Source of the DNA: Nitrospirales bacterium
GTDB lineage: Bacteria; Nitrospirota; Nitrospiria; Nitrospirales; UBA8639
Assembly: GCA_963422365.1 (NCBI GenBank)
Contig: OY729426.1
Location: forward strand, 1,344,001 to 1,408,000
Length of the DNA: 64,000 bases
Direction: 5' to 3'
The notes below the pieces were generated by a model. The model was not told where the DNA came from. It searched no databases and saw only the letters and a program-made list of their open reading frames with translations. Position numbers and translations under genes: made by a program. Positions 30,495-49,234 of the stretch are shown piece after piece; the first letter of the stretch is position 1; each line of letters begins with the position of its first letter.

Positions 30495-30776
30495 TCAGCG
30501 ATTATCAGCTTTTGCCGGGAGGGCGTCAAGCTGCGCGATGACATCGGCGGCGGGTTGTGCACCTGACGCGCTTCGACCTAGCTGGTTGCCTAGCGCGAGG
30601 ATTTTGAGCAGCGCAAGGATCTCCTGCATTTGCTTGTAGCTGTCGATATCCTGCATGACCACCTTGGCTTCACCGTTCTGGGTGATGACCAAGGGTTCTC
30701 CTCCGAGTGTGCGCACGATCTCGGCGGCGTGGGCCTTGAGGTAACTGATCGGCTTGATCTGGGTGGACGGTTTCAT
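30495..30776 (-). CDS. Phd/YefM family antitoxin (no adjacent toxin)
   Basis: IKPISYLKAHAAEIV...PLVITQNGEAKVV. Confidence 0.88.
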   Translation of the reverse strand: MKPSTQIKPISYLKAHAAEIVRTLGGEPLVITQNGEAKVVMQDIDSYKQMQEILALLKILALGNQLGRSASGAQPAADVIAQLDALPAKADNR

Positions 30777-36724: not shown

Positions 36725-37382
36725 GGTGCTGATTACGGATGACCATCGTGTTGTGCGGGAGGGATTGTCCGCTATCCTTGAGACCAAAGAAGAAATCCAA
36801 ATTGTCGGAGAAGCCAAGGATGGCGGTGAAGCCGTCGAAAAAGCCAGACAATTACTGCCCGACGTGATCGTCATGGATGTGAGTATGCCGGGAATGACAG
36901 GGGTGGAAGCCACGCGGATCATTAAACGAGAACTGCCGCATATCGGGATTATTGCCCTGACGATGTATGAGGATCATCAATATATTTTCGACTTGGTCCG
37001 GGCTGGTGCCACGGGCTATCTCCTCAAAGACTCGGATTCCACGGAAATCGTCGCGGCCATTCGTGCCATTTCCCGTGGTGAATCGCTGATCCATCCTTCG
37101 GTGGCGAGCAAGATTTTAGCCGAGTTTTCATTGTTGGCTGAAGGCAAAAGCAAAAAAAAGTCCTTACTGGAACACGATCTCACGGAGCGCGAAATTACGG
37201 TCCTGCGATTGGTGGCGGATGGGAAGACCAACAAAGAAATTGCCAATGTGTTGGATCTCAGCGAGAAAACCGTGAAAAATCACGTTCGGAACATCTTCCA
37301 CAAGCTCCACGTCTATGATCGAACGCAAGCCGCGATTTTAGCGATCAGGAAAGGGATTATCGAACTCGAGCCGCATCCCTAA
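36708..37382 (+). CDS. NarL/LuxR-family response regulator
   Basis: DDH..., MDVSMP, GYLLK, LTEREITVL...SEKTVKNH. Confidence 0.95.
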   Translation: MAKKIKVLITDDHRVVREGLSAILETKEEIQIVGEAKDGGEAVEKARQLLPDVIVMDVSMPGMTGVEATRIIKRELPHIGIIALTMYEDHQYIFDLVRAGATGYLLKDSDSTEIVAAIRAISRGESLIHPSVASKILAEFSLLAEGKSKKKSLLEHDLTEREITVLRLVADGKTNKEIANVLDLSEKTVKNHVRNIFHKLHVYDRTQAAILAIRKGIIELEPHP

Positions 37383-37472
37383 CCCTCCCTCCCGCTGAGA
37401 TGTTCGCACAGATCGGATCGAGCGCATGCAGAATGCGTCATCGGATACGGCATTTTTGGGATGATGCACCCT

Positions 37473-37902
37473 TCAGGTCGAGCGCGACTCCACGATAAGC
37501 TCACGACCGATCACCCGTAGGGCTTTGCGAATGTGGCTTGTCGCGGTGGTGCCGTGGTGCGGATCAATCATGCGGCGGATGACTTTCTCGTTAACACCGA
37601 AACGCTGAGCCAAGGCCACGCGAGACAACCCGCTCTTACGGAATGCGAGGACAAGCGCGGCGTTGGCCGCGATATTTGTGGGACGGCAATCAAATGCTCT
37701 CCAGCGTACAGGGGACTTGGTGTCGGAATTTCCTCACCATCGTCGATGTACCCCGAGGTCGCTTCTTCCAAGGTAGTAGTGGCTGCAGCCGGCGCTTCGG
37801 TGTTGTTGGAGCCGGATGTGAGACATTCGGCAGGTCGCGGAACAAAACAATGATCTCTCCTGGGCTATCTGGCTGAAACTGTGCAGGATACAGAAAACGC
37901 AT
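37473..37902 (-). pseudogene. HicB-family antitoxin pseudogene
   Basis: MRFLYPA...IVLFRDLP / EEATSGYIDDGEEIPTPS / VIRRMIDPHH...IRKALRVIG across frameshifts. Confidence 0.75.
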
Positions 37903-37918
37903 ACTCGTCTCTCGGTAA

Positions 37919-39069
37919 TCATTGCGTAGCGTTAACAGATTTACGCAAGGCGTTAAATTGCATCGTTTCTCAAGCCTGATAGTTTTCAGGTGCTCGCCAA
38001 AATTCTTGCCATGCGGAGTTGAGAAGACTGACGACCGGGGTCAGTGTATCCGACTTTGTTGTTCCCACACCAGTCTCTTCGATACCTTCCTTCGCCGCCG
38101 AGACGATTTTAGATGACAGGGGCTTAGGGTAAGCCTGCTGGTATGCAGGCGCTGGGTCGTAGCCCATAATCTCAATAAATCCCGCCAAGCCTTCTTGATC
38201 AGCTTCATTTCCGCATCGAAGCCGGTCGCTGCCAGCATCATTAGCGCCGTGCACATCCGTGCATCATCAGCCGGATGCGTTGACTCAAATATCAGCGGCG
38301 TCTCAAAGGGATCGCCGCCACGTTTGATGCAAAGGTGATAGTGCGACCAAGCAAACGCTGGCCCCGCCATTAGTACGCCGAACAAGTCACAGAAAAACTC
38401 TTGCATCCAGAAGTTTGCCCAAAAGGTGCTCCATAGCCGAAGCTGGTAGGACTTACCCTCCGGCTTGCGCACGCGTTCGGCGGCTGTGATTTCATTGCGG
38501 AAATGCCTTATTATCTCGAACTGGCTTTGCTTGGAGGCGGCATGATACGATTCAAGTGCTGGAAGATCGGGTTCCTGCCCCCGATGAAATAAATGGCAGA
38601 ACTCGTGATAAATATCGGGCAAGTGCAGGAGAAATCGACTCTCAATCAACGGGACGCAAAGCAAATGGAATTCGACATAGGTATGAAAATAGTCCTGGGA
38701 CATATGACTGATAGTCGGAGAGATCAAAGGATAGGCGATCTCACGACCGACATCTGTAACAAGCCGGTTGAGGAAATCATCATTCTGGCCTGTTCTGCTG
38801 AGGGCAAATACGCCGACGCCTTCAACAGCCTTGAGTTGTCTCACTCTACGTTTGAATTTCCTCACACGCCGAGGCGTCTGTAACGCCGTATCGACAACGG
38901 TCTCTTTGGCCAAGCGTCGGAGAGTAGCCTGCGTTTCGTCGAGTTGGGTCAAGCAAATTCGTCGCAAGCCGTCATACTCACGCGGAGACCGTCTCTGTAC
39001 GATCTGGCGTAACTGCCGCTCCCGCTCCAGTGATTGGCCAATCGATCCAATCAAGTACTTCTCGATCAT
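37919..39069 (-). pseudogene. M48-like gluzincin metallopeptidase (HEXXH), frameshifted near the C-terminus
   Basis: IYHEFCH, QEFFCDLFG, STHPADDARM. The C-terminus continues in the 37970..38254 frame (LLNSAWQEFW) with a TGA at 37970. The start ATG overlaps the upstream TAA. Confidence 0.7.
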
Positions 39070-39433
39070 TAACGCCCCCGTAGTTGCCTGGCTACCTCCA
39101 CTCGTTCCTGTTCCAATCCTTGGGCGAGTTTCTCCAACTATCTTAGGTAGCCTGATCCACGTCCCCGTTCTGAAGTCGTTCGCCAAGTTGTTTCCAGTTT
39201 GCTAAAGGCTCACCCGTACTCGTCCTAGGCAGACTGTCAAGTGTCAAGGCTTCGATGGACTGAGACTCTAGACTTTGATCACTCGCGTCAATGAAGAGTT
39301 GTGCCAGCTTCTTCTGATCTGGATCGGTTGGATCGAACTGCCCTTGTCCTAGCCGTTCAATTACTCTGTCTATCAGGGCACCGTATGCCTCGACATTAGC
39401 GTAAACGCCTGTGAGGAAACTCAAATCGCTCAT
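39069..39433 (-). pseudogene. Small (~120 aa) helical Argonaute-adjacent protein, frameshifted
   Basis: GGAGG RBS, MSDLSFLTGVY.... After a shift near 39150 it reads LEKLAQGLEQERVEVARQLRGR*, with TAATG coupling to the peptidase. Confidence 0.6.
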
Positions 39434-40340
39434 ATTGTATACCCTCCTGAGGTTTGTCGTTGGTTTTCAATTCAATTACATCTTGATCGTATTCAGCAGC
39501 TTCGTCGAATAGGTTGCGGTCACAAAGTTTGATCGAAATCGGCAGACGCCAGTATATAAAGGGGTATCGAGGAGGAACGGCCATTTCCCATTGGTGAGCA
39601 GTACCTTGTTGAGCGCGACATTGCGTAAGCAACCAGAGAGGCGTTTGCGCTCTTCGGGCTTTACGACGTAATTAATATATCCCGCCTTCACGCGTCACGC
39701 TAGTGTAAGCTTTCCTCGACACCTCCGTGTGAATGACGGCTGCATTGAGATCGAACCGAAGAGTAAACTCCTTCACCGTCCAAGCCGCCAATTGATCTGC
39801 TGATCTCGGACGGCGATCATCGCGATGCACCATTACGAGTGCGTAGCCTGGCCTGATGTTGGCACCCTTTACAGCTTCTCTAATCGCACGGGCCAGACCA
39901 GCGAAATCACGTCTGACGTTGAGCTCGTCATAGACAATAATTTCAGGATCGTAACCCCTGCCATTGGGATAAAGGTCATCTACCTGCTTCTTGAAATTCT
40001 TGAGAAACTGCGAGTCATAGCTGTTCTCGACACTCTTGGGCAGCACGAGATATTGTCGATCAAGGAGACTCTGCTCAAAGAAACCCGCGTCTTCATCTTT
40101 CAAGAGCGTCAGCCTGCTTTGTCCATAACGGTTAATCGCAACGGGCATATTATGCCCGTTCGTTTCAAGCGACAAAGTCGCATCGTTGCCAAAACGTAAT
40201 TTAGGCGGCGAGAACGGTTTCGTTCTTGTACGCCCTGCCCGGTCCGAAACCGAGAGAGTACCATTTCTGACCGGCACCTGACTCAGAAACATTCTGACGA
40301 GTTGGTTGATCTGCCGGTGCCGATTATGAGGCTTGATAAC
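39396..40340 (-). pseudogene. Prokaryotic Argonaute remnant (L2-MID plus C-terminus; PIWI core deleted, N/PAZ missing)
   Basis: IKPHNRHRQI (L2 start), PPKLRFGND, MID alpha/beta pattern, LRNVALNKVLLTNGKWPFLL (MID-PIWI junction) and RLPISIKLCD (Ago C-terminal motif). Confidence 0.75.
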
Positions 40341-40346
40341 GAAGTT

Positions 40347-41692
40347 TATCTAAGAGATGGCGTGATAAGGAAAAGTCGGTTAAGCAAGATAAACCAGTCT
40401 CCTTTTCTGCCTTGGGCTCCCCCCCCTTCTGAATCAGGAGGGCCTCAGGCGGCCGTCTGCTCGTAGTTGTTCATGAGTGTTTCTTCCCAATCGTAGTGGC
40501 CTAGCCGGTGGGTCCGGAGTAGAGACTGAGCGTTTCGTCCAAATGCTCGCACACCAGCACCCGACACGTGACTAAGCTAGATCAGAAGGGCTGCGGCTCA
40601 ATCTGGAGTCGCAGCCCGTAGCTGACCGTGGTGTCCGCCGTGACCACGCGGGCTGCCTGTCGAGAAACAATCTTCTCCACGTCCGCCCCATGCAGCGGCA
40701 CGAAGGCCATACCTGCTTGCTGGGGGGACCGTGAACTGCCGATTGTGAAAAGGGATCCACTCCTCCCGCAAAAAGCGGTTGGCCTCTGCCCCCGTGCGAA
40801 TCCCTCGTAGCTGCAGCTCTTGGGGCAGCCGCCCCTGCCACGTGCCAAACAGCCGTTCGCCATGGCCCCGCGACTAGGGCGAGTGGGCCACGAGCAACTC
40901 GACGCCCAACGGGTCTAAGGCTGGGCCCACCTAGGTCCGCTGCGCCCGCTCCGGCGGCCCAGCCGCCTGGGGCGTGAAGACAAAGTGGCTGGCTCGATCC
41001 GTATAAAGCGTACAAAACACCTCCTGGTGCTCCACCACGGCTTTGAGGGCAGCCATCACTGTCGCCGGTGCTCTCCTCGGCCACCAACGGGGCGTAGCAG
41101 CCATCGTTGTCTGCGTCGTTCAGAACCACCAGCAAGTCCTGAGTCCTCCGTCCGGGCAGCCAGGCGTACTTGCTGGCGTCCAGATGGAGCAACATTCCCT
41201 TGAGCGGCCGCCCTCGGCCACCAAGCCTGCGGCTTGCAGTGCCTGCTTCACCCAACTCTAGTTTAACTCAATCCCTTCCTCCCTCTGCAGCTTCTCCACG
41301 AAATGGATCATGTTGAAGACCTTGTATTTGTCCCGGTACAACCCCAGCACCTGCTCCACCGTCGCCCAGGGCACCCGCTTCGGCGAGGATCTTCTTACAC
41401 GCCGATCACCCCCCCTCCAGTCGTAGCCGTGCTCCTCATAGCGACGCACCCACCGCCACATCGTCCCGGGGACTCACCCCGATGATCTCCGCCGCTTGTG
41501 CCCACGTGAGCGGCTTACGGATCACTCGCAACATCACTTCCTGTACTTTCATGGCCAGCTCCATAATGCGGGGCGGATAGAGTGTCATCCCAACCTCCTT
41601 TCTGATTGGGCAAAACGCCTCTCCTACTCCCGTGCCGCTGGACCGGATACTTCACTTGCTACAACCACCGGACACATCACATCCTACTGATA
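40347..41692 (-). mobile_element. Degenerate IS1202/ISNCY-like (IS481-related) insertion sequence, transposase about 40445..41588 fragmented
   Basis: LTWAQAAEIIGVS, RWVRRYEE (HTH), HFVEKL, LLHLDASKYAW, LNDA, AHSP*SRG.GERLFGTWQGRLP. Repeated CCGGA.A..TCAC.T.CTAC end motifs at 41643-41690. The right boundary is approximate. Confidence 0.8.
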
Positions 41693-41764
41693 AAACCCAT
41701 ACACTCGGTTGCGAGCCTTTCCGGTTAGTGCTACCATTTATTTCAGCAAAAGGAGAGCGTGGGT

Positions 41765-42244: not shown

Positions 42245-42321
42245 GGCGAAAGAAAATTCGTGCTCCTTTCCGGTGACGCATAGCCCTGAGCATCGCCTCC
42301 TTCTTGTTTCTACCGCCTGCC

Positions 42322-45300
42322 ATGCTTCACGTCGTTACGGGTCTCTTTCATCCTGATCTGGAACAAGCCTTAGCCTCCGACCTTCGCTTGATCACCGTCG
42401 CCCGGCCCGTGGCGCCGTGTCTGATTCTCGTTCCGTCGGAAAGTATACGCACGCACCTCAAATGGAGCTTCTGCATGGAGAAGCTCCAGCCTCTTTTCAA
42501 CGTTCATCTCTTGACGTTTCATCAATTGGCGTTGCGGGTTCTGGAAGAACAGGGCCGTGGGGTCTCAGCCCAGCTCCGAGGCGAGTCCTTTTTTCGAGAA
42601 TGGGTGCATCAACGGTTGCGCCAGCGAGGGGAAAATCTTGTCGGGCTCAACGAACTTGTCTCGATGCCCGGCGGATGGGCAGCGCTCTGGGCCACGCTCA
42701 AAGATCTCAAGGATGCGAGAGTGGACGCCGGTTTGGTGTTGGAAGCGTTCAGCCAAAGTCCGTTCTCAACGGATTGCCGACTGCAGTCGGTCATTCGCTT
42801 GTACCAGGCGTGGTGTGATGACCAAAGCCGCCACTCGTTATATGACCACGACGACGTCGCGGTGTTGGCGCTCGATCTGGTGTCTGCTTCATTGTGGCTT
42901 CGTCAACAGGCTCATGTTTTTTACTATGGATTTTATGATTTGACCCAAGGGCAACTCGATCTCTTTCAAATGATCGTCAGGCAGTACCCCGCCACGCTGT
43001 ATTTTCCGTTACTCGACCAACATCCGGCTTTTCGTTTCGCCCAGCAATTTTTCGATCAACATATCCGCGGCCTCGCGGCGGGCCCGATCGAACGTAAGGT
43101 CGCGGCCGTCAACGCGTCTCCATGTCGAGACTTATTCGATCCTGCCCGAGTGTTCCGGTCACAGGAGCCTGAAAAGTCCGACGTGCCAGACAAGCCGAGC
43201 CGGTTTACAGACGGCATTGAGGTAAGCGGGGCGCAAGGGTTCTGTCGCCTTGTGACGGTCTCCGGCTCGAACGACGAGATCGAAGTGGTGGCGAAAGAGA
43301 TCCTGGCCTTGGCGCATGATCAGCACATTCCTTTTCATGACATCGGTGTGGTGGGGCGGACGTTGGCCGGATATGAAGACATCCTGCCCCGCGTCTTTTC
43401 GGCGCAGGGGATTCCCTTTCAGGCGACCCTGCGTCGGCCCTTGAGCCAGTATCCGTTTCCCCAAGCCGTGCTGCGTCTCCTCACGCTTCGTCTTTCCGAC
43501 TTTGATCGCAACACAACCTTTGACGTGTTGTCTTCCCCGTTCGTGAAGTGGCAGACCTTCTGCCCCGACGTCACGGCCCCGCGTCCTGATGTGTGGGAGC
43601 AGATGAGTCAACAGGTTGGGATCGAAAAAGGTCGGCAGGAGTGGGAGCGATTGGTTCGGTTTTTTGAAACAGGGGTTTCGACGCCGAGCAAGCGAAGACA
43701 AGAAGGGCACACGATTGCCGGCGAAGAAGTCAGGAACCTCTGGCACGTGATGCGTCGATTAACCCGGCTTCTTGATACCTTCCCTGACCAGGCGAGTTGG
43801 GAGGCCTTCACGGATCAAGCCCTGTCTCTGATGGATCTCGTGCTGACGGGTCCGTTGCAGCACCAAGACGCGCACGCGTCCCAAGGAGAGGGCAGCCTTG
43901 ACGTGGAAGAGACAGTCGAATTCTCGCGCATGTATCAAGCGGTGCAGGAGTGCTTTGCAGAGATGCGGACACTCACGAACGTCAGCGGGCCGATTCAGTA
44001 TGCGGAGTTTCTCGCGACGCTCAAGCGGTTCATGGAAGAACGGTTCGCATGGAATCCGTTGCAACCGGAAAAGACGGACGGGGTGCGGGTCGTCGATGCC
44101 ATGGCGGCTAGGGGTCTGTCCTTTCGCTTCTTGTTTGTGATCGGGCTCACGGATCATGTCTTCCCTCGACATATTCGAGAGGACGGATTTTTCCGAGATT
44201 CGGCGCGACGGTTTCTGGACATGCACCTGGGGTTCAAAATTCAGGAAAAGACCAGAGGGTATGATGAGGAAAAGTTATTGTTCTATCTGTTGATGCACGC
44301 GGTGCGGGAGCGGGTCGTGCTGGTCTCGCAACGGTCGGACGAGGAGGGCCGGACGACCATCCCTTCCTGGTATCTGCAGGAAGTGGAACGCTGCATGCCG
44401 GGTCTTGCTTCGGTGGAAGTGCCCAGATCCCTTCTTCATAAACCCCAAGTGGCGTTGTACGCCGATGAGTCGCGATGGACGCCGCGCGAGCGGCTCATAC
44501 GACACGTGCTGCGTCGCCATAGGCCGACTCAGGCAACCGAAGGGGACCCGGTGTGGTGGCAGATGGTGAAACAGGGGCTTGCGGCACTCCGTGTTCAGGA
44601 GAGCGAACGGCCGCAACTGAATGCCTACGACGGCATCACCGGGCCCCTGGCCGAATATGGGAAGTTTCTGGCCGTTCATGGTCTGTCGCCGACCAGCCTT
44701 GAATGCTATGCGGTCTGTCCCTTTCGATATTTCGCACAGGCCGTCCTGGATCTCCACGTGCCGAGGGCAACGCCCTTGAGTCAGGGCGTGAGCGCATTTG
44801 AGTTGGGCACGCTGCTTCATAGGATTTTAAAAGAATGGTATGGCCGGTTAGGGCAAAGCGGGTGGTTTGCGCATGCGGCGCCGTCCGATTTCAAGCCCTT
44901 GGAAATCATGGAGCAAATCGCAGAGTCCGTTTTTCGGGATTTCGAACAGCAGCACGCGGTCGGGCCTGCGTTGTTGTGGAAAATGCAGCAAGAACGCCTC
45001 ATGGGCATTCTTGAACGGATCCTGCAACAGGACAGGCAGGAGATGGGGCACGAATGGCGCCCGGTCTTGTTTGAAATCCCTTTGAACGGGGAGATGCCGG
45101 TAAAGGGGGCCAAGAGTGCGACGTTGTTCCCCATTGCCGGTCGACTTGATCGAGTGGATTGGTCGCCTTCCACCCACCGGTATCGTATCATCGATTATAA
45201 ATATACGGCGCGGACCACCGGACTCATGACGGAAAAAAGCTTAGCCAAGGATGTTGTGCAAGGGACCCGCCTGCAACCATGGATCTACATGGAATTGGCC

Positions 45301-45744
45301 AAGCAAGGCGTCCCGCAGCAGTTGCCGGAAGGGCCGAGGCCGGACATCGAGACAAGTGACTGTGAAGGCGTGTGGTTGTATGTCGTGGCCCCTCGGGCGC
45401 TCCCTGAGGACCAAGGCTTTGCGCCTGTGGCCTTTTCAGCAAACATGCGGGATAGCGTCACCCCGCAACTGGAGACGATGATGACGACGATTGTCCAAGG
45501 GATTCAGCAAGGAAAGTTTTTCATCGTTCCTGGTCAACATTGCAAATGGTGTCACGTGCGGTCGGTGTGCCACCGCACCCATCCGGAAAGCGCCCGTCGT
45601 GCGCGCGAGGATCGCGCACAGACCTCCGCGCATCGAAATCTGCGCCGCCAGCAGCCTCCATCGTCCCTCGCGACTTCCAATCCGGACTCTGACTCAGAAG
45701 GGCGGCAAGGTCATGAAAGCGAAGATGACGGATCATCTCCCTGA
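42322..45744 (+). CDS. addB: AddB/RexB-like recombination nuclease subunit
   Basis: Inactive helicase-like N-terminus, SPTSLECYAVCP, GRLDRVD...IIDYK, C-terminal CKWC.....C Fe-S staple. Confidence 0.85.
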   Translation: MLHVVTGLFHPDLEQALASDLRLITVARPVAPCLILVPSESIRTHLKWSFCMEKLQPLFNVHLLTFHQLALRVLEEQGRGVSAQLRGESFFREWVHQRLRQRGENLVGLNELVSMPGGWAALWATLKDLKDARVDAGLVLEAFSQSPFSTDCRLQSVIRLYQAWCDDQSRHSLYDHDDVAVLALDLVSASLWLRQQAHVFYYGFYDLTQGQLDLFQMIVRQYPATLYFPLLDQHPAFRFAQQFFDQHIRGLAAGPIERKVAAVNASPCRDLFDPARVFRSQEPEKSDVPDKPSRFTDGIEVSGAQGFCRLVTVSGSNDEIEVVAKEILALAHDQHIPFHDIGVVGRTLAGYEDILPRVFSAQGIPFQATLRRPLSQYPFPQAVLRLLTLRLSDFDRNTTFDVLSSPFVKWQTFCPDVTAPRPDVWEQMSQQVGIEKGRQEWERLVRFFETGVSTPSKRRQEGHTIAGEEVRNLWHVMRRLTRLLDTFPDQASWEAFTDQALSLMDLVLTGPLQHQDAHASQGEGSLDVEETVEFSRMYQAVQECFAEMRTLTNVSGPIQYAEFLATLKRFMEERFAWNPLQPEKTDGVRVVDAMAARGLSFRFLFVIGLTDHVFPRHIREDGFFRDSARRFLDMHLGFKIQEKTRGYDEEKLLFYLLMHAVRERVVLVSQRSDEEGRTTIPSWYLQEVERCMPGLASVEVPRSLLHKPQVALYADESRWTPRERLIRHVLRRHRPTQATEGDPVWWQMVKQGLAALRVQESERPQLNAYDGITGPLAEYGKFLAVHGLSPTSLECYAVCPFRYFAQAVLDLHVPRATPLSQGVSAFELGTLLHRILKEWYGRLGQSGWFAHAAPSDFKPLEIMEQIAESVFRDFEQQHAVGPALLWKMQQERLMGILERILQQDRQEMGHEWRPVLFEIPLNGEMPVKGAKSATLFPIAGRLDRVDWSPSTHRYRIIDYKYTARTTGLMTEKSLAKDVVQGTRLQPWIYMELAKQGVPQQLPEGPRPDIETSDCEGVWLYVVAPRALPEDQGFAPVAFSANMRDSVTPQLETMMTTIVQGIQQGKFFIVPGQHCKWCHVRSVCHRTHPESARRAREDRAQTSAHRNLRRQQPPSSLATSNPDSDSEGRQGHESEDDGSSP

Positions 45745-48700
45745 TAGCCACGCGCGTCATTGTGCAGTCACGGCTTCGGAGACGAATGTCGTGGTCACGG
45801 CGGGGGCTGGCACGGGCAAGACGTCGCTGCTCATTGATCGCATCCTCCATGTTCTGACCCGCCGCCGCCACCGACTGTCCTTGACGCAAATCGTCGCGGT
45901 CACCTTTACCAACAAGGCAGCCAGTGAACTGAAGCTGCGGGTGCGGCATCGGTTGCGGCTTATGAAGGATCTGGCCTCGGGTGCCTATGCCGAGGATCAA
46001 TCCCACGGTTACGCGATCCAGTCGATTCGGACGCTGCAGGAATCTTCCGGTCTCACCGACGCGGAGTTGGCGGAGGTCAGCGACACGGCGATGCGTGATC
46101 TGGAACGGGCACATATTGAAACCATTCATGGTTTTGCAGGCCATCTCTTGCGGCTCTATCCCGTGGAAGCCGGTGTCGATCCCTCGTTTCAGGAAGATGA
46201 CGGTGCGCAATTTCACGAGCATTTCAAGCGCGAGTGGGAACAGTGGGTGCAGCAGGAATTGGATGCTGGCGGACGACGGCATGACGTCTGGTGGCAGATG
46301 CTGACGCGCCATAGCTTGGATGACATGGAGCAACTCGCGCTGGCGTTGACGGACGAATTACTCCCATTACCCGTGAACGGAATTCGTACCTCGCAACAGG
46401 AGATCACGCCGCCCCTCAGATCGTGGGTGACGAAACTAGACGGACGCGGACGCACGTTGCAGGAAACGTATCAAGGCACGCTGAAGATCAATCGCATGCT
46501 CGATGACGCCGTGGCGCTGTTGGCAAGCCTGTCCACGGAAAAAACGCCGCGGGCAGAAGCAACGGATGAGAGTCCTCCTGCCACAATGCTTCAACAAACC
46601 CTTCCCGCGAAGAAGCCGAAGGGCTGGATTGAGGAAGACTATGAAGAAGCCAAGGGGCTGATCAAGGTGGCCCGGGCGATTGAACAGTCGCGTGCGGGGT
46701 CGTTATGGGACATTGTGCATCTCCTTGCCCCGTTTGTCGCGCAGTGCCGCAACTCGTTCGTGGAGAAAGGGCTGGTGTCGTTTAACGGCTTGCTCGCGCG
46801 GGCGCGGGCGCTGCTTCGAGACCATCCGCAGGTACGCGCCGAATTGAAGGCCCAGTATCAGGCGATCATCGTGGATGAATTTCAGGACACCGATCCGGTT
46901 CAATACGAGTTGATTCTGTTTGTAGCCGAGGCCTTGGGCGCCGAAGCGCGGGAATGGCGTGACGTGCAACTAGCGCCGGGGAAATTGTTTATCGTGGGCG
47001 ATCCCAAGCAATCTATTTACGCGTTTCGGCGTGCGGACATCGAAGCCTACGATACCGTCGTGCGGAACCATATTCTGTCGCCCACGGCCCAAGGGGAGCG
47101 GCATTCCTTGCAAAGCAACTTTCGAGCCCATGCCCGAGTGCTCGATCCGGTGAACCGCTGTTGCGCCAATTTGTTTCCTTCCGCTTCCGTCAAAGGAGTG
47201 CAACCGCATTACGAACATCTCGTTCCCGTTCCATCGGACTCGTCGCCCTTGCCCCACGAACGGGTGCAACTTCGCCTCGTTGCCCTTGCGCAGGAGGACG
47301 CAGATGCGGAAACGGCCAGTCGGACGGAGGCGGAAGGCTTGGCGCGTTGGTTGCGGGAGGAGGTCATAGACAAAGAGCAGCTTCTTCTGGGGCGTCGCGC
47401 CGTGACGATCCAGCCGCGCCATATTGCAGTACTGTTTCGGACGTTGACCCATCAGCGAATCTGCCTTGAAGCCTTTCGGCGGCACCACCTGCCTTGCCTC
47501 GCCGAAGGGGAAAAACACTTTTATGAACGGCAGGAGGTGATTGATTGCAGCCACGTGCTGCGAGTCCTGACGGATCCTCGTGATGAGTTGGGCGTGGTTG
47601 GGGTGTTGCGGTCTCCATACGGGGGCTGTTCCGACGTTGAGATTGAATTGATCGTGCAACGAGGCTTCCTGGATAATTGGGCGCACGAGTCGCCCCTCAA
47701 GCACCCGCCGCCGATTTTTTCCGTCCTGCGTTCATTGCACATGGAGATACAAATGCTGCCGGTTCCCGAGGCCATCCAGCGCATTTTCCAAACACTGCCC
47801 CTGGCGGAACTGGCAGCGGCTTCCCTCGACGGCGAACATGCACTCGCAAACGTGCTCAAACTACGGGACACTATGCTCGAACTGGCCGTGCGGTCCGGAT
47901 TGACGCTTCGAGAAATCATTCGCCAAGTGAGGCAATGGGTGGACGATCCGCCCGAAGAAGGGGAACGGGCCCTTGTCGAAGAAGGGCTTACTCCACAGGC
48001 CCCGGAAGGAGCGATTCGATTGTTGAGCATCCACAAGGCCAAAGGGTTGGAATTTCCCATGGTGATCGTGGCGGGCTTGCATCGGGATACCGATCATCGA
48101 GGAACGCCGGTTTGGACGTCCCACGATTGGCTGACCGACACCGTCGGACTTCGTCTTGGCCACGCAGCCGATCTCGGAGGAATTTTCATCGAAACGAAAT
48201 TAGCCGAACGACAACGAGCCGAACAGGTGCGGTTGCTCTATGTTGCCATGACCCGTGCACAACGTCGTCTCGTGTTGTCGGCGGTGCTTCCCGGAAAAGG
48301 GGCGAACAAAAAGGGAACGTTCCTGTCGTTACTCGCGCGAGGGTTGGATCTTGATTTGGCGGCAATGCTTGAGGCGGCCAAAGAACAATCCCCACATGAT
48401 CATCTTGCTGAAGACGTGGCCGTGACGACGATTGTCGTATCGGCTGATCAGCCGACGAGGAAGGATTGGCCCGCCCAACCCGTGTGGAAAGCGACCATGC
48501 CGGACGGTGCGGATCACCAACGCCGTTGGGTTGCCTGGATGAAGCAGATGGAAATGGTGCAGAGGACACCGCTGTTTCTTTCCCCGACCCAGTCCCTGAA
48601 CACGACAGGCGATCCCCTGTCGTTGTCCACGAACCCTGCAGCCGGAGAGAAGTCCATAATCCTTCTGAGGAAGAAACCGGCGTCGCAGTCGGGACCATCA

Positions 48701-49234
48701 GATCGAAGCGCGCTCATAGGGACGCTCGCCCATCGTGTCTTGCACGGGTGGGATTTTTCTGCTGCTCCGGACACGGTGCCGGTGTGGCCGGCGTGGATTG
48801 AAGCCTGCTGTCGGGCACACCTTCCCAAGGAATGGGCCTCGGAGTCGGACAATGTGTATGAAGAATTGCGAGCACTCTTCACGCATTTTGTCGCGTCCGA
48901 ACCGTATGCCGTGCTTCAACAGGCAGAAATTCTGGGCAGAGAAATTCCGTTTGCTGTGCCATGGAAGAGTGTAGGGGAAGACGCCGTGCGGACCCTGACC
49001 GGACCCTCCTGTGTGATGGAAGGGGTGATCGATGTCATGTATCGTTGGCGTCAACAAATTTGGATTGCTGACTATAAGACGCATCGGGTAGAAGAAAACT
49101 CCCTGGCACAGGTGGTGCATGAGCACCGGGCACAGATGGAGACCTATCGTCGAGCAACGGAACTGGCCTTGGGGCAGAGTCCTGTCCGAGCACAACTCGT
49201 ATTTTTACGGAGTGGACGCAGCGTCGAGGTTTAA
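45713..49234 (+). CDS. addA: AddA/RexA-like UvrD helicase-nuclease
   Basis: AGAGTGKT, VDEFQDT, GDPKQSIYAFR, HKAKGLEF, YVAMTRA, EGVID...ADYK. Confidence 0.9.
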   Translation: MKAKMTDHLPDSHARHCAVTASETNVVVTAGAGTGKTSLLIDRILHVLTRRRHRLSLTQIVAVTFTNKAASELKLRVRHRLRLMKDLASGAYAEDQSHGYAIQSIRTLQESSGLTDAELAEVSDTAMRDLERAHIETIHGFAGHLLRLYPVEAGVDPSFQEDDGAQFHEHFKREWEQWVQQELDAGGRRHDVWWQMLTRHSLDDMEQLALALTDELLPLPVNGIRTSQQEITPPLRSWVTKLDGRGRTLQETYQGTLKINRMLDDAVALLASLSTEKTPRAEATDESPPATMLQQTLPAKKPKGWIEEDYEEAKGLIKVARAIEQSRAGSLWDIVHLLAPFVAQCRNSFVEKGLVSFNGLLARARALLRDHPQVRAELKAQYQAIIVDEFQDTDPVQYELILFVAEALGAEAREWRDVQLAPGKLFIVGDPKQSIYAFRRADIEAYDTVVRNHILSPTAQGERHSLQSNFRAHARVLDPVNRCCANLFPSASVKGVQPHYEHLVPVPSDSSPLPHERVQLRLVALAQEDADAETASRTEAEGLARWLREEVIDKEQLLLGRRAVTIQPRHIAVLFRTLTHQRICLEAFRRHHLPCLAEGEKHFYERQEVIDCSHVLRVLTDPRDELGVVGVLRSPYGGCSDVEIELIVQRGFLDNWAHESPLKHPPPIFSVLRSLHMEIQMLPVPEAIQRIFQTLPLAELAAASLDGEHALANVLKLRDTMLELAVRSGLTLREIIRQVRQWVDDPPEEGERALVEEGLTPQAPEGAIRLLSIHKAKGLEFPMVIVAGLHRDTDHRGTPVWTSHDWLTDTVGLRLGHAADLGGIFIETKLAERQRAEQVRLLYVAMTRAQRRLVLSAVLPGKGANKKGTFLSLLARGLDLDLAAMLEAAKEQSPHDHLAEDVAVTTIVVSADQPTRKDWPAQPVWKATMPDGADHQRRWVAWMKQMEMVQRTPLFLSPTQSLNTTGDPLSLSTNPAAGEKSIILLRKKPASQSGPSDRSALIGTLAHRVLHGWDFSAAPDTVPVWPAWIEACCRAHLPKEWASESDNVYEELRALFTHFVASEPYAVLQQAEILGREIPFAVPWKSVGEDAVRTLTGPSCVMEGVIDVMYRWRQQIWIADYKTHRVEENSLAQVVHEHRAQMETYRRATELALGQSPVRAQLVFLRSGRSVEV

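Follow-up and report, generated by a model that had tools for sequence, protein, structure and literature searches.

The 64,000-nt stretch of Nitrospirales DNA analysed here (the window; contig OY729426.1, positions 1,344,001 to 1,408,000 of the forward strand) carries on its minus strand, at 37919-40340, a recently inactivated relic of a five-gene operon built around an Argonaute of the PliAgo group. In intact relatives the order is XRE repressor, Cas4-like nuclease, PliAgo-group prokaryotic Argonaute (pAgo), 121-aa helical protein (the small protein) and HExxH protein (the peptidase), and the five genes, coupled in translation, are almost never found apart. The operon is partly known, that is, a published PliAgo-group unit with two undescribed members rather than something wholly new: a first-pass annotation of the window had proposed an undescribed pAgo system, and this stands for the last two genes, of which no description was found, but not for the first three, which have been published (PMC9360449, available in part). 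The peptidase partner of the D-R Argonautes is unnamed in the literature found, including the accessible text of PMC9360449, PMC12094033, PMC13346755 and PMC12642450, with figures and most subscription papers outside the search. Overall, the operon is best explained as containing a latent protease-plug switch, a reading that we regard as about evenly balanced and for which we infer both the trigger and the substrate.

The relic in the window

The first-pass annotation had reassembled six short minus-strand open reading frames (ORFs) into three linked genes. These ORFs (40292-39672, 39691-39476, 39632-39396, 39433-39143, 39186-38041 and 38254-37970) and the quoted motifs were located as described and, with 76-83% DNA identity, map onto three genes of an intact locus (L002) of an uncultured Nitrospirales member of the same genus, in which, however, the unit comprises five genes. 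Alignment with L002 gave 76% identity over 40314-39550 and 83% over 39549-37465; the two aligned blocks touch in the window and lie 586 nt apart in L002, and therefore most of the PIWI domain must have been deleted.

The upstream fragments do belong to an Argonaute, as had been supposed. The sequence 40340-39675 matches PliAgo (7r8f, E 2.4e-32) and positions 296-511 of the PADLOC pAgo_II model (E 3.4e-65), and the next two pieces match positions 513-554 and 749-778 of the same model; a Pfam search with eight pieces of the window gave no match. The first remnant (39672..40340) has no start, covers L2 and MID (residues ~296-517 of a 791-aa PliAgo-group protein) with the MID-pocket residues R468 and H499 kept, and ends at a +4 frameshift (~39675) and a TAA. 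The second (39550..39674) contains the end of MID (residues ~513-557), where the pocket tyrosine Y531, present in 49 of 50 relatives, is replaced by cysteine. At 39549..39550 lies the junction of the 586-nt deletion (L002 6933-7518, residues 558-753), which took most of PIWI with D564, E593 and D627, i.e. three of the four residues of the catalytic DEDD tetrad, and so left a pseudogene of the family. The third remnant (39430..39549) encodes the C-terminal 38 residues with K760 and D763, and a +2 frameshift near its end (~39440) causes the natural stop to be read through.

As had been noticed, the ribosome-binding site of the small helical gene (39069..39433; 121 aa in relatives) lies inside the 3′ end of the pAgo gene (AGGAGG at 39448-39443). 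A -1 frameshift at ~39150 halts this gene at residue 95-96 of 121, with an early TAA at 39145-39143. The gluzincin-like peptidase gene (37919..39069; 383 aa in relatives) is coupled to it by TAATG at 39071-39067, its ATG being at 39069; it retains HEFCH (38607-38593), E224 (38400) and H265 (38277), and carries a -1 frameshift at ~38179 and a TGA at 37972-37970.

With its 5′ loss, its PIWI deletion and a frameshift in every gene, the copy is indeed dead. The first 2.4 genes of the operon have been deleted, including the part encoding pAgo residues 1-295, and neither a functional Argonaute nor a functional small protein nor a full-length peptidase is made from the window. Neither a second copy nor the missing half of the operon could be detected in the window's genome, from which the XRE and nuclease genes are both absent. 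Logan contigs of runs X3 and X5, which come from two studies, one of them possibly the source of the window, match 37436-40500 with no differing letter and no gap; the lesions are therefore not assembly errors, an explanation that was discarded on this ground. The ratio of nonsynonymous to synonymous substitution rates was 0.09-0.26 between the window copy and intact relatives and 0.05-0.23 among intact copies, and none of 64 conserved peptidase columns is altered in the window, which indicates that the copy died recently.

The intact operon

When 185,579 species genomes were searched with the peptidase piece of the window, 100 candidate stretches gave seven loci. All seven have nuclease, pAgo, small gene and peptidase in this order, with the XRE gene in front in six of them. 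The relic thus points to intact relatives, as anticipated, since L002 carries the whole operon at the same chromosomal site, and the order of the three genes recurs across phyla. In intact copies, Pfam recognised HTH, PDDEXK_1 and Piwi in the first three genes, and PADLOC recognised the nuclease (Aga_Cas4-like_Nuc, E 1e-126) and the Argonaute (pAgo_II, E 0). The nuclease is ~313 aa long, and C14, C297, C300 and C306 together with D179, D193 and K195 of the D-DxK motif are conserved in at least 90% of 43 sequences.

The L002 pAgo matches PliAgo (7r8f) over residues 1-782 (E 5.4e-212). The DEDD tetrad (D564, E593, D627 and D763) is present in 50 of 50 full-length pAgos, so that, judged by these residues, the relatives' Argonaute is a catalytically intact slicer, unlike the inactive pAgos of the long-B/short abortive class. 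H499 and Y531 are found in 47 and 49 of the 50, respectively, the misses including both pAgos of the sigma-70-type operons described below; K760 is found in 46. PliAgo and RslAgo carry out DNA-guided RNA cleavage, and the part of the published account available leaves their natural role open (PMC9360449); by homology to this group, the operon's Argonaute would also be expected to cut RNA under DNA guidance. On the match to 7r8f, which belongs to the RNA-cutting PliAgo clade, we abandoned the view of the locus as an APACE2 system that targets DNA.

No sixth gene was found to recur. The commonest neighbour family, which is named as ThiF-like at L019 and L022, occurs at six loci (L006, L019, L022, L037, L085 and L091), where these genes flank the operon, probably within shared defence islands; multiubiquitin genes accompany them at L019 and L022, and L018 adjoins a CBASS phospholipase. 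Decayed operon copies are frequent (the window, L007, L048, L049, L093, G630 and G817). In one decayed copy (L122, G630:C1, 2991-4477) the pAgo match starts at profile position 292, compared with 296 in the window, and the small gene and the peptidase are intact.

Linkage of the small gene and the peptidase gene to the Argonaute

Genes were detected with hidden Markov models (HMMs) from at most 11 seed loci, and the 92 loci examined gave 69 peptidases at <90% identity. The peptidase-anchored metagenome set comprised at least 599 candidate stretches, of which 376 were confirmed and the best 80 of the 376 were used. Among these 80, the small gene was upstream of the peptidase in all 72 loci with 300 nt of flank (8 were too short), and the loci that could be checked for the other upstream genes had them in 65 of 68 cases for the pAgo, 37 of 37 for the nuclease and 31 of 32 for the XRE gene. 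The three pAgo misses correspond to one locus with an internal deletion. Homologues of both proteins are therefore found beside pAgo genes, as the first-pass annotation had required of its proposal.

The same linkage was obtained when starting from the Argonaute. In six partly overlapping genome samples (201, 401, 401, 138, 401 and 151 genomes), each of the seven newly found genomes with a pAgo-model match had the peptidase just downstream and a small ORF in between, recognised by the small-protein HMM in six cases. Among 72,556 plasmids, 13 had a pAgo match and five a peptidase match, and these five were exactly the plasmids with a full-length pAgo of this clade; none of the eight other pAgo plasmids had the peptidase. 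No peptidase was found within 1.5 kb of any of six weak pAgo matches. Six Nitrospirales genomes (L010-L015) carry weak matches to pAgos of another type (E 1e-6 to 8e-4, mostly frames of ~520 aa), with the peptidase not nearby.

The RslAgo gene itself (WP_013921749.1), which is on a plasmid, is followed by WP_013921748.1 and WP_013921747.1, the small gene and the peptidase. Two plasmid operons of sigma-70 type, in Emticicia and Spirosoma, also end in the small gene and the peptidase, and match PADLOC PDLC02383 (E 1e-215 and 1e-226). Since the pair is present in operons of both the sigma-70 and the XRE type, it is common to both D-R groups, and it is the regulator that differs. In searches of viral contigs and phage records, neither the peptidase nor this pAgo clade had a relative. 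Distant peptidase homologues numbered 897 at E 0.001. At one locus (L127, G201:C196, 2354-5999) a distant 419-aa HExxH homologue is convergent to a distant 798-aa pAgo, the small gene and the nuclease not being recognised; a link of this kind may thus extend past the two D-R groups.

The HExxH protein and the small protein

Neither the peptidase nor the small protein matched a family at cut-off in Pfam, PADLOC or NCBIfam, Atlas gave no usable match for the small protein, and sequence searches of the PDB with either profile returned nothing significant. Across 122 peptidase homologues (22-75% identity) the only invariant columns are H155, E156, H159, E224, H265 and P266. The model of the whole protein (pLDDT 97.8) consists of a three-helix bundle (residues 1-91) and a catalytic domain in which three short strands precede the HExxH helix; it is helical after residue 140 and contains no GAF sheet, so that the peptidase-HTH-GAF architecture of IrrE/CapP is not found. 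Because the N-terminal bundle filled the list of VIA matches to the whole model, the catalytic domain alone (residues 94-383, pLDDT 96.6) was compared by VIA with 48,161 chains. The top ten matches were all M48 or M13 gluzincins (Z 5.8-7.9, rmsd 3.6-7.7, 139-182 aligned residues). BepA, of family M48, came first (Z 7.9, rmsd 3.6, 139 aligned), followed by Zmp1 (7.8, 4.5 and 179), but M48 and M13 are in effect tied. Matches to M78 were weak, in 5 of the 122 members (best E 7.7e-4). With the full motif set invariant and the top fold matches unanimous, the protein looks like a gluzincin, in keeping with the zinc peptidase suggested by the first-pass annotation. Among the peptidase homologues, P0126 and P0148 are fused to a CHAT domain whose catalytic His and Cys motifs are apparently kept, and P0155 carries a long extension with a second HExxH.

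The small protein has 204 homologues, and no membrane segment (above Kyte-Doolittle 1.6) was found in any of 59. Small-gene starts were chosen near the HMM start; most of them overlap the pAgo stop (-4 in 54 of 77) and are therefore fixed independently of the HMM. The N-terminal register is constant in 58 of 59 sequences, residue 2 being Ser in 52, Thr in 5 and Asn in 2. The small gene in turn overlaps the peptidase gene by -1 or -4 in 54 of the 77 scored junctions.

Modelling of the two proteins together gave an ipSAE of 0.72 versus 0.00 for the best of three controls. Of the solved pairs 116 of 157 attain the mark, and of the mismatched pairs 2 of 215; with the alignments and zinc used here these counts are approximate. 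The runs agree in at least 45% of contacts, with a partner pLDDT of at least 75. The modelled interface (~105 contacts over 40 residues) brings residues 1-10 of the small protein to E156, H159, E224, H265 and strand 127-133 of the peptidase, and leaves the conserved C-terminal RMRG tail of the small protein outside. The model supports binding of the small protein across the peptidase active site. Methionine is removed before Ser, and AprI and the TIMPs bind zinc through their N-terminus; by analogy, the small protein could after Met removal present a free amine to the zinc. The small protein had been put forward as an adaptor or a substrate: its modelling as an active-site plug speaks against the adaptor, while the substrate survives as an unlikely rival.

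The probable operator and the regulators

Ahead of the XRE gene, the palindrome TGCTTGACA-NNN-YWWGCA covers the -35 hexamer and is followed closely by a -10-like box and by the start codon. Allowing at most one mismatch, it was present at 31 of 35 XRE loci, in 0 of 7000 shuffles and in 0 of 74 downstream control stretches, and three later loci had 0, 0 and 2 mismatches. It is missing (4-6 mismatches) at L007, at the XRE-less L037 and at both sigma loci, and shows 2 mismatches at the XRE-less L020; no exact match occurs in the window's genome. The XRE protein (~114 aa) has no peptidase domain, matches PADLOC capH over 11-96 of 103 (E 2.4e-7), and in 28 of 28 sequences has [RK]-[LIFV]-G ahead of the C-terminal helix. 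At the sigma loci (L021, 2956-3498; L022, 2894-3439) a 180-aa gene is located between the sigma-70 factor and the nuclease; its product, with no Pfam match and a weakly XRE-like middle, is a candidate anti-sigma factor.

The chromosomal site

L002 and the relic share a variable slot (window 37380-41705), flanked by a regulator gene that we take to be of NarL type and by a thioredoxin-like gene, and occupied by the operon in 2 of 38 same-genus genomes. The slot is near-empty in many genomes, holds a HicB-like gene in about ten and other cargo in G028; a 29-nt stretch by the slot in L002 matches two other places in G000. The HicB-like gene remnant of the window (37473..37902, minus strand, frameshifts at ~37827 and ~37679) belongs to the variable site and not to the operon; the L002 copy matches PF15919 under the cut-off (E 1.2e-4). 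The pAgo break point adjoins a small insertion-sequence end fragment (40332..40384), 85% identical to a 708-bp element with terminal inverted repeats and at least four copies in G074, which is presumably IS1016-like, as judged from its ORF and not from a library. The place of the XRE gene, the nuclease gene and the 5′ half of the pAgo gene is occupied by a degraded pseudogene (40450..41590, minus strand), single-copy in the genome and matching HTH_32 only (E 3e-4), which from its motifs we take to be a transposase. Intact addB- and addA-like genes lie at 42304-49234, 2 kb from the relic, a nearness taken as chance because the site is a variable slot with the operon in so few genomes of the genus. 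A Phd/YefM antitoxin gene is found at 30495-30776 (PF02604, E 9e-14).

Discussion

The last gene of the operon probably encodes a zinc protease that is latent, and the gene before it the cognate plug, which would be made first and would insert its N-terminal ten residues in the active-site cleft. Repression of the operon by the XRE protein is very probable, with the palindrome TGCTTGA-N4-TCAAGCA, which spans the -35 box, as its site of action. The following step, to which we would give somewhat less than an even chance, is that the Cas4-like nuclease chops invading DNA to guides, that the loaded Argonaute finds complementary RNA, and that the plug is then lost, because the target-bound Argonaute displaces it or because its synthesis stops and it runs out. 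More tentatively, the freed protease might cut its own regulator, i.e. the XRE protein at the R-[LIFV]-G linker or the sigma partner, and so amplify the defence in the manner of CapP/CapH and Craspase/Csx30. The regulator would be the likeliest substrate because an operon that represses itself requires an inducer, for which none of the other conserved genes is a candidate; on the analogy with these systems it ranks narrowly above a host target. In its fullest form, which is possible but doubtful, the D-R Argonautes would be sensors of a DNA-guided, RNA-activated protease, in which the target-bound Argonaute pulls the plug from the gluzincin and the freed gluzincin cuts the repressor, the anti-sigma factor or a host target. 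From the earlier proposal of an Argonaute sensor with an adaptor or substrate and a proteolytic effector, the Argonaute and the zinc-peptidase-like identities are retained, whereas the small protein as adaptor is not.

Several observations weigh against this switch. The tie between Argonaute and protease is known here from genes alone. The complex is a model that fits plug and substrate alike, the peptidase interface is on average no better conserved than the rest (0.49 vs 0.54 elsewhere), and at L046 (1-345) a frameshifted small gene stands, at a contig end, beside an intact peptidase, which is either an artefact or a genuine departure from the plug rule. The best fold match (Z 7.9) is inside the tool's middling range, and Foldseek gave no match with either the whole or the cut peptidase model. 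Pfam M48 (PF01435) was matched by 1 of the 122 members (E 0.0076, 16.5 bits versus a cut-off of 20.3). Furthermore, the fold is M48/M13-like and not of the IrrE/CapP type, whose members are the ones known to cleave XRE repressors, PprI/IrrE ranking 47th (Z 4.1). As for regulation, the palindrome pattern was derived from the same loci on which it was first counted, the R-[LIFV]-G motif may be structural, and the peptidase is kept at the XRE-less loci L020, L037, G817 and G630. One protease would moreover have to cut two regulators, between which hhalign gives a probability of 6.8% (XRE versus sigma partner).

The freed protease could instead act in abortive infection, cutting an essential host protein as Lit does and killing or arresting the cell upon target recognition by the Argonaute, a possibility that we consider unlikely but substantial. 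An antitoxin gene placed before its toxin gene with coupled translation is typical of such pairs, and the plug gene precedes the enzyme gene here with the coupling described above. Two further findings favour killing: among named Atlas clusters, Peptidase_U49/M48 come nearest (score 0.78-0.79), which is no more than a lead, and two peptidase homologues are fused to CHAT (P0126, E 4e-9; P0148, E 2e-4). The pair is also retained whichever regulator heads the operon, and a slicer of RNA alone would plausibly need an ancillary effector against DNA phages. The frequent decay listed above, which argues against strong addiction, speaks against killing, and so does the broken small gene beside the intact L046 peptidase.

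It is less likely, on the models, that the small protein is the substrate, such that a cut near G5-L6 would yield an active effector or an unstable timer. Residues 1-10 do occupy the modelled cleft, the RMRG tail is left free, and protease-activated small effectors are common in defence according to the text available of PMC12642450. In the alignment, G5 is found in 41 of 59 sequences and residue 6 is hydrophobic in at least 54 of 59. Thermolysin-type enzymes prefer a hydrophobic P1′ residue, which this pattern fits. On the other hand, the extent of the modelled contacts suggests that the complex is stable, the cut would take off no more than four or five residues, and the small protein has no membrane segment. 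Rather improbable is a pair that merely rides with the operon as an accessory guard or addiction module and is not triggered by the Argonaute: it is intact where the pAgo has been deleted or shortened (L049-051 and G630), and the distant peptidase of L127 (G201) is convergent to its distant pAgo, but addiction modules usually roam, and none of the best 80 of 376 loci with enough flank had the pair without operon remnants. It is very improbable that the HExxH protein is no protease but serves as a metal-binding scaffold or hydrolyses something other than peptides; the lack of any family at cut-off and fold scores of Z <8 would be in its favour, while the gluzincin set is invariant with its catalytic Glu and distal His, the top ten fold matches are all peptidases, and a polypeptide models into the cleft.

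The nearest known systems share parts of the arrangement of this operon. The PliAgo-group D-R operons have the same Argonaute clade, the DEDD tetrad, the H and Y of the RHSY pocket, and an upstream PD-(D/E)XK nuclease with an HTH regulator, from which the window copy differs in being dead; in the portion available, the paper describing them (Lisitskaya et al. 2022, PMC9360449) names only the nuclease, the HTH regulator and the sigma factor, and 'peptidase' and 'protease' do not occur in its three text supplements, although figure labels could differ. The PnyAgo-group operons (same source, in part) are alike in that those of Emticicia and Spirosoma end in the pair, and differ in being headed by a sigma factor and the 180-aa protein instead of XRE, with no operator palindrome. 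APACE/ACE2 systems (Bobadilla Ugarte et al. 2025, PMC12094033) also join a Long-A pAgo to a Cas4-like nuclease, the ACE2-like nuclease here having 313 aa, one N-terminal Cys and three C-terminal ones; in the text seen, APACE1, which is DNA-targeting and cyanobacterial, is the only one characterised, and a peptidase is nowhere mentioned.

CapP-CapH and IrrE-DdrO likewise combine a latent zinc peptidase with the XRE repressor of a defence operon, and according to the accessible text the cut that CapP makes in CapH falls between Phe82 and Arg83, where the dimerisation domain begins (10.1101/2022.04.27.489752). CapP, however, is described there as peptidase, HTH and GAF with an internal cysteine switch and a single-stranded DNA trigger, whereas the HExxH protein joins a three-helix bundle to an M48/M13-like domain, lacks GAF and would have its plug encoded by another gene. 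Type III-E Craspase (PMC9729208, in part) offers a programmable RNA-targeting nuclease with an autoinhibited protease, and one group also encodes a sigma factor with a partner; its guide is a CRISPR RNA and its caspase-like cysteine protease is bound directly to the effector, whereas in the Argonaute operon guide and protease would be DNA and a zinc enzyme. The places of Cas7-11 and TPR-CHAT are taken here by an Argonaute and a gluzincin, so that the likeness is one of analogy only. AprA is a secreted metzincin and AprI a beta-barrel inhibitor. They too are a zinc protease and a neighbouring small inhibitor gene whose product blocks the catalytic site, in the account available (PMC3161968), but with folds and a role unrelated to those of the present pair.

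Work on PliAgo, RslAgo and their relatives has treated them as purified tools for cutting RNA, without the two genes that almost always follow them, and this omission may explain the lack of a recorded cellular function in the literature found. The window copy is a fossil pointing to an intact system. The cultured type strain Runella slithyformis DSM 19594 carries a complete operon on its plasmid pRUNSL03 (RUNSL_RS28815-28795), which makes the question directly testable. If the Argonaute is the counterpart of Craspase, this would be the first protease arm of a pAgo system found, and if RNA recognition activates the protease, the operon would represent a new effector class in Argonaute immunity and a programmable RNA-to-protease sensor.

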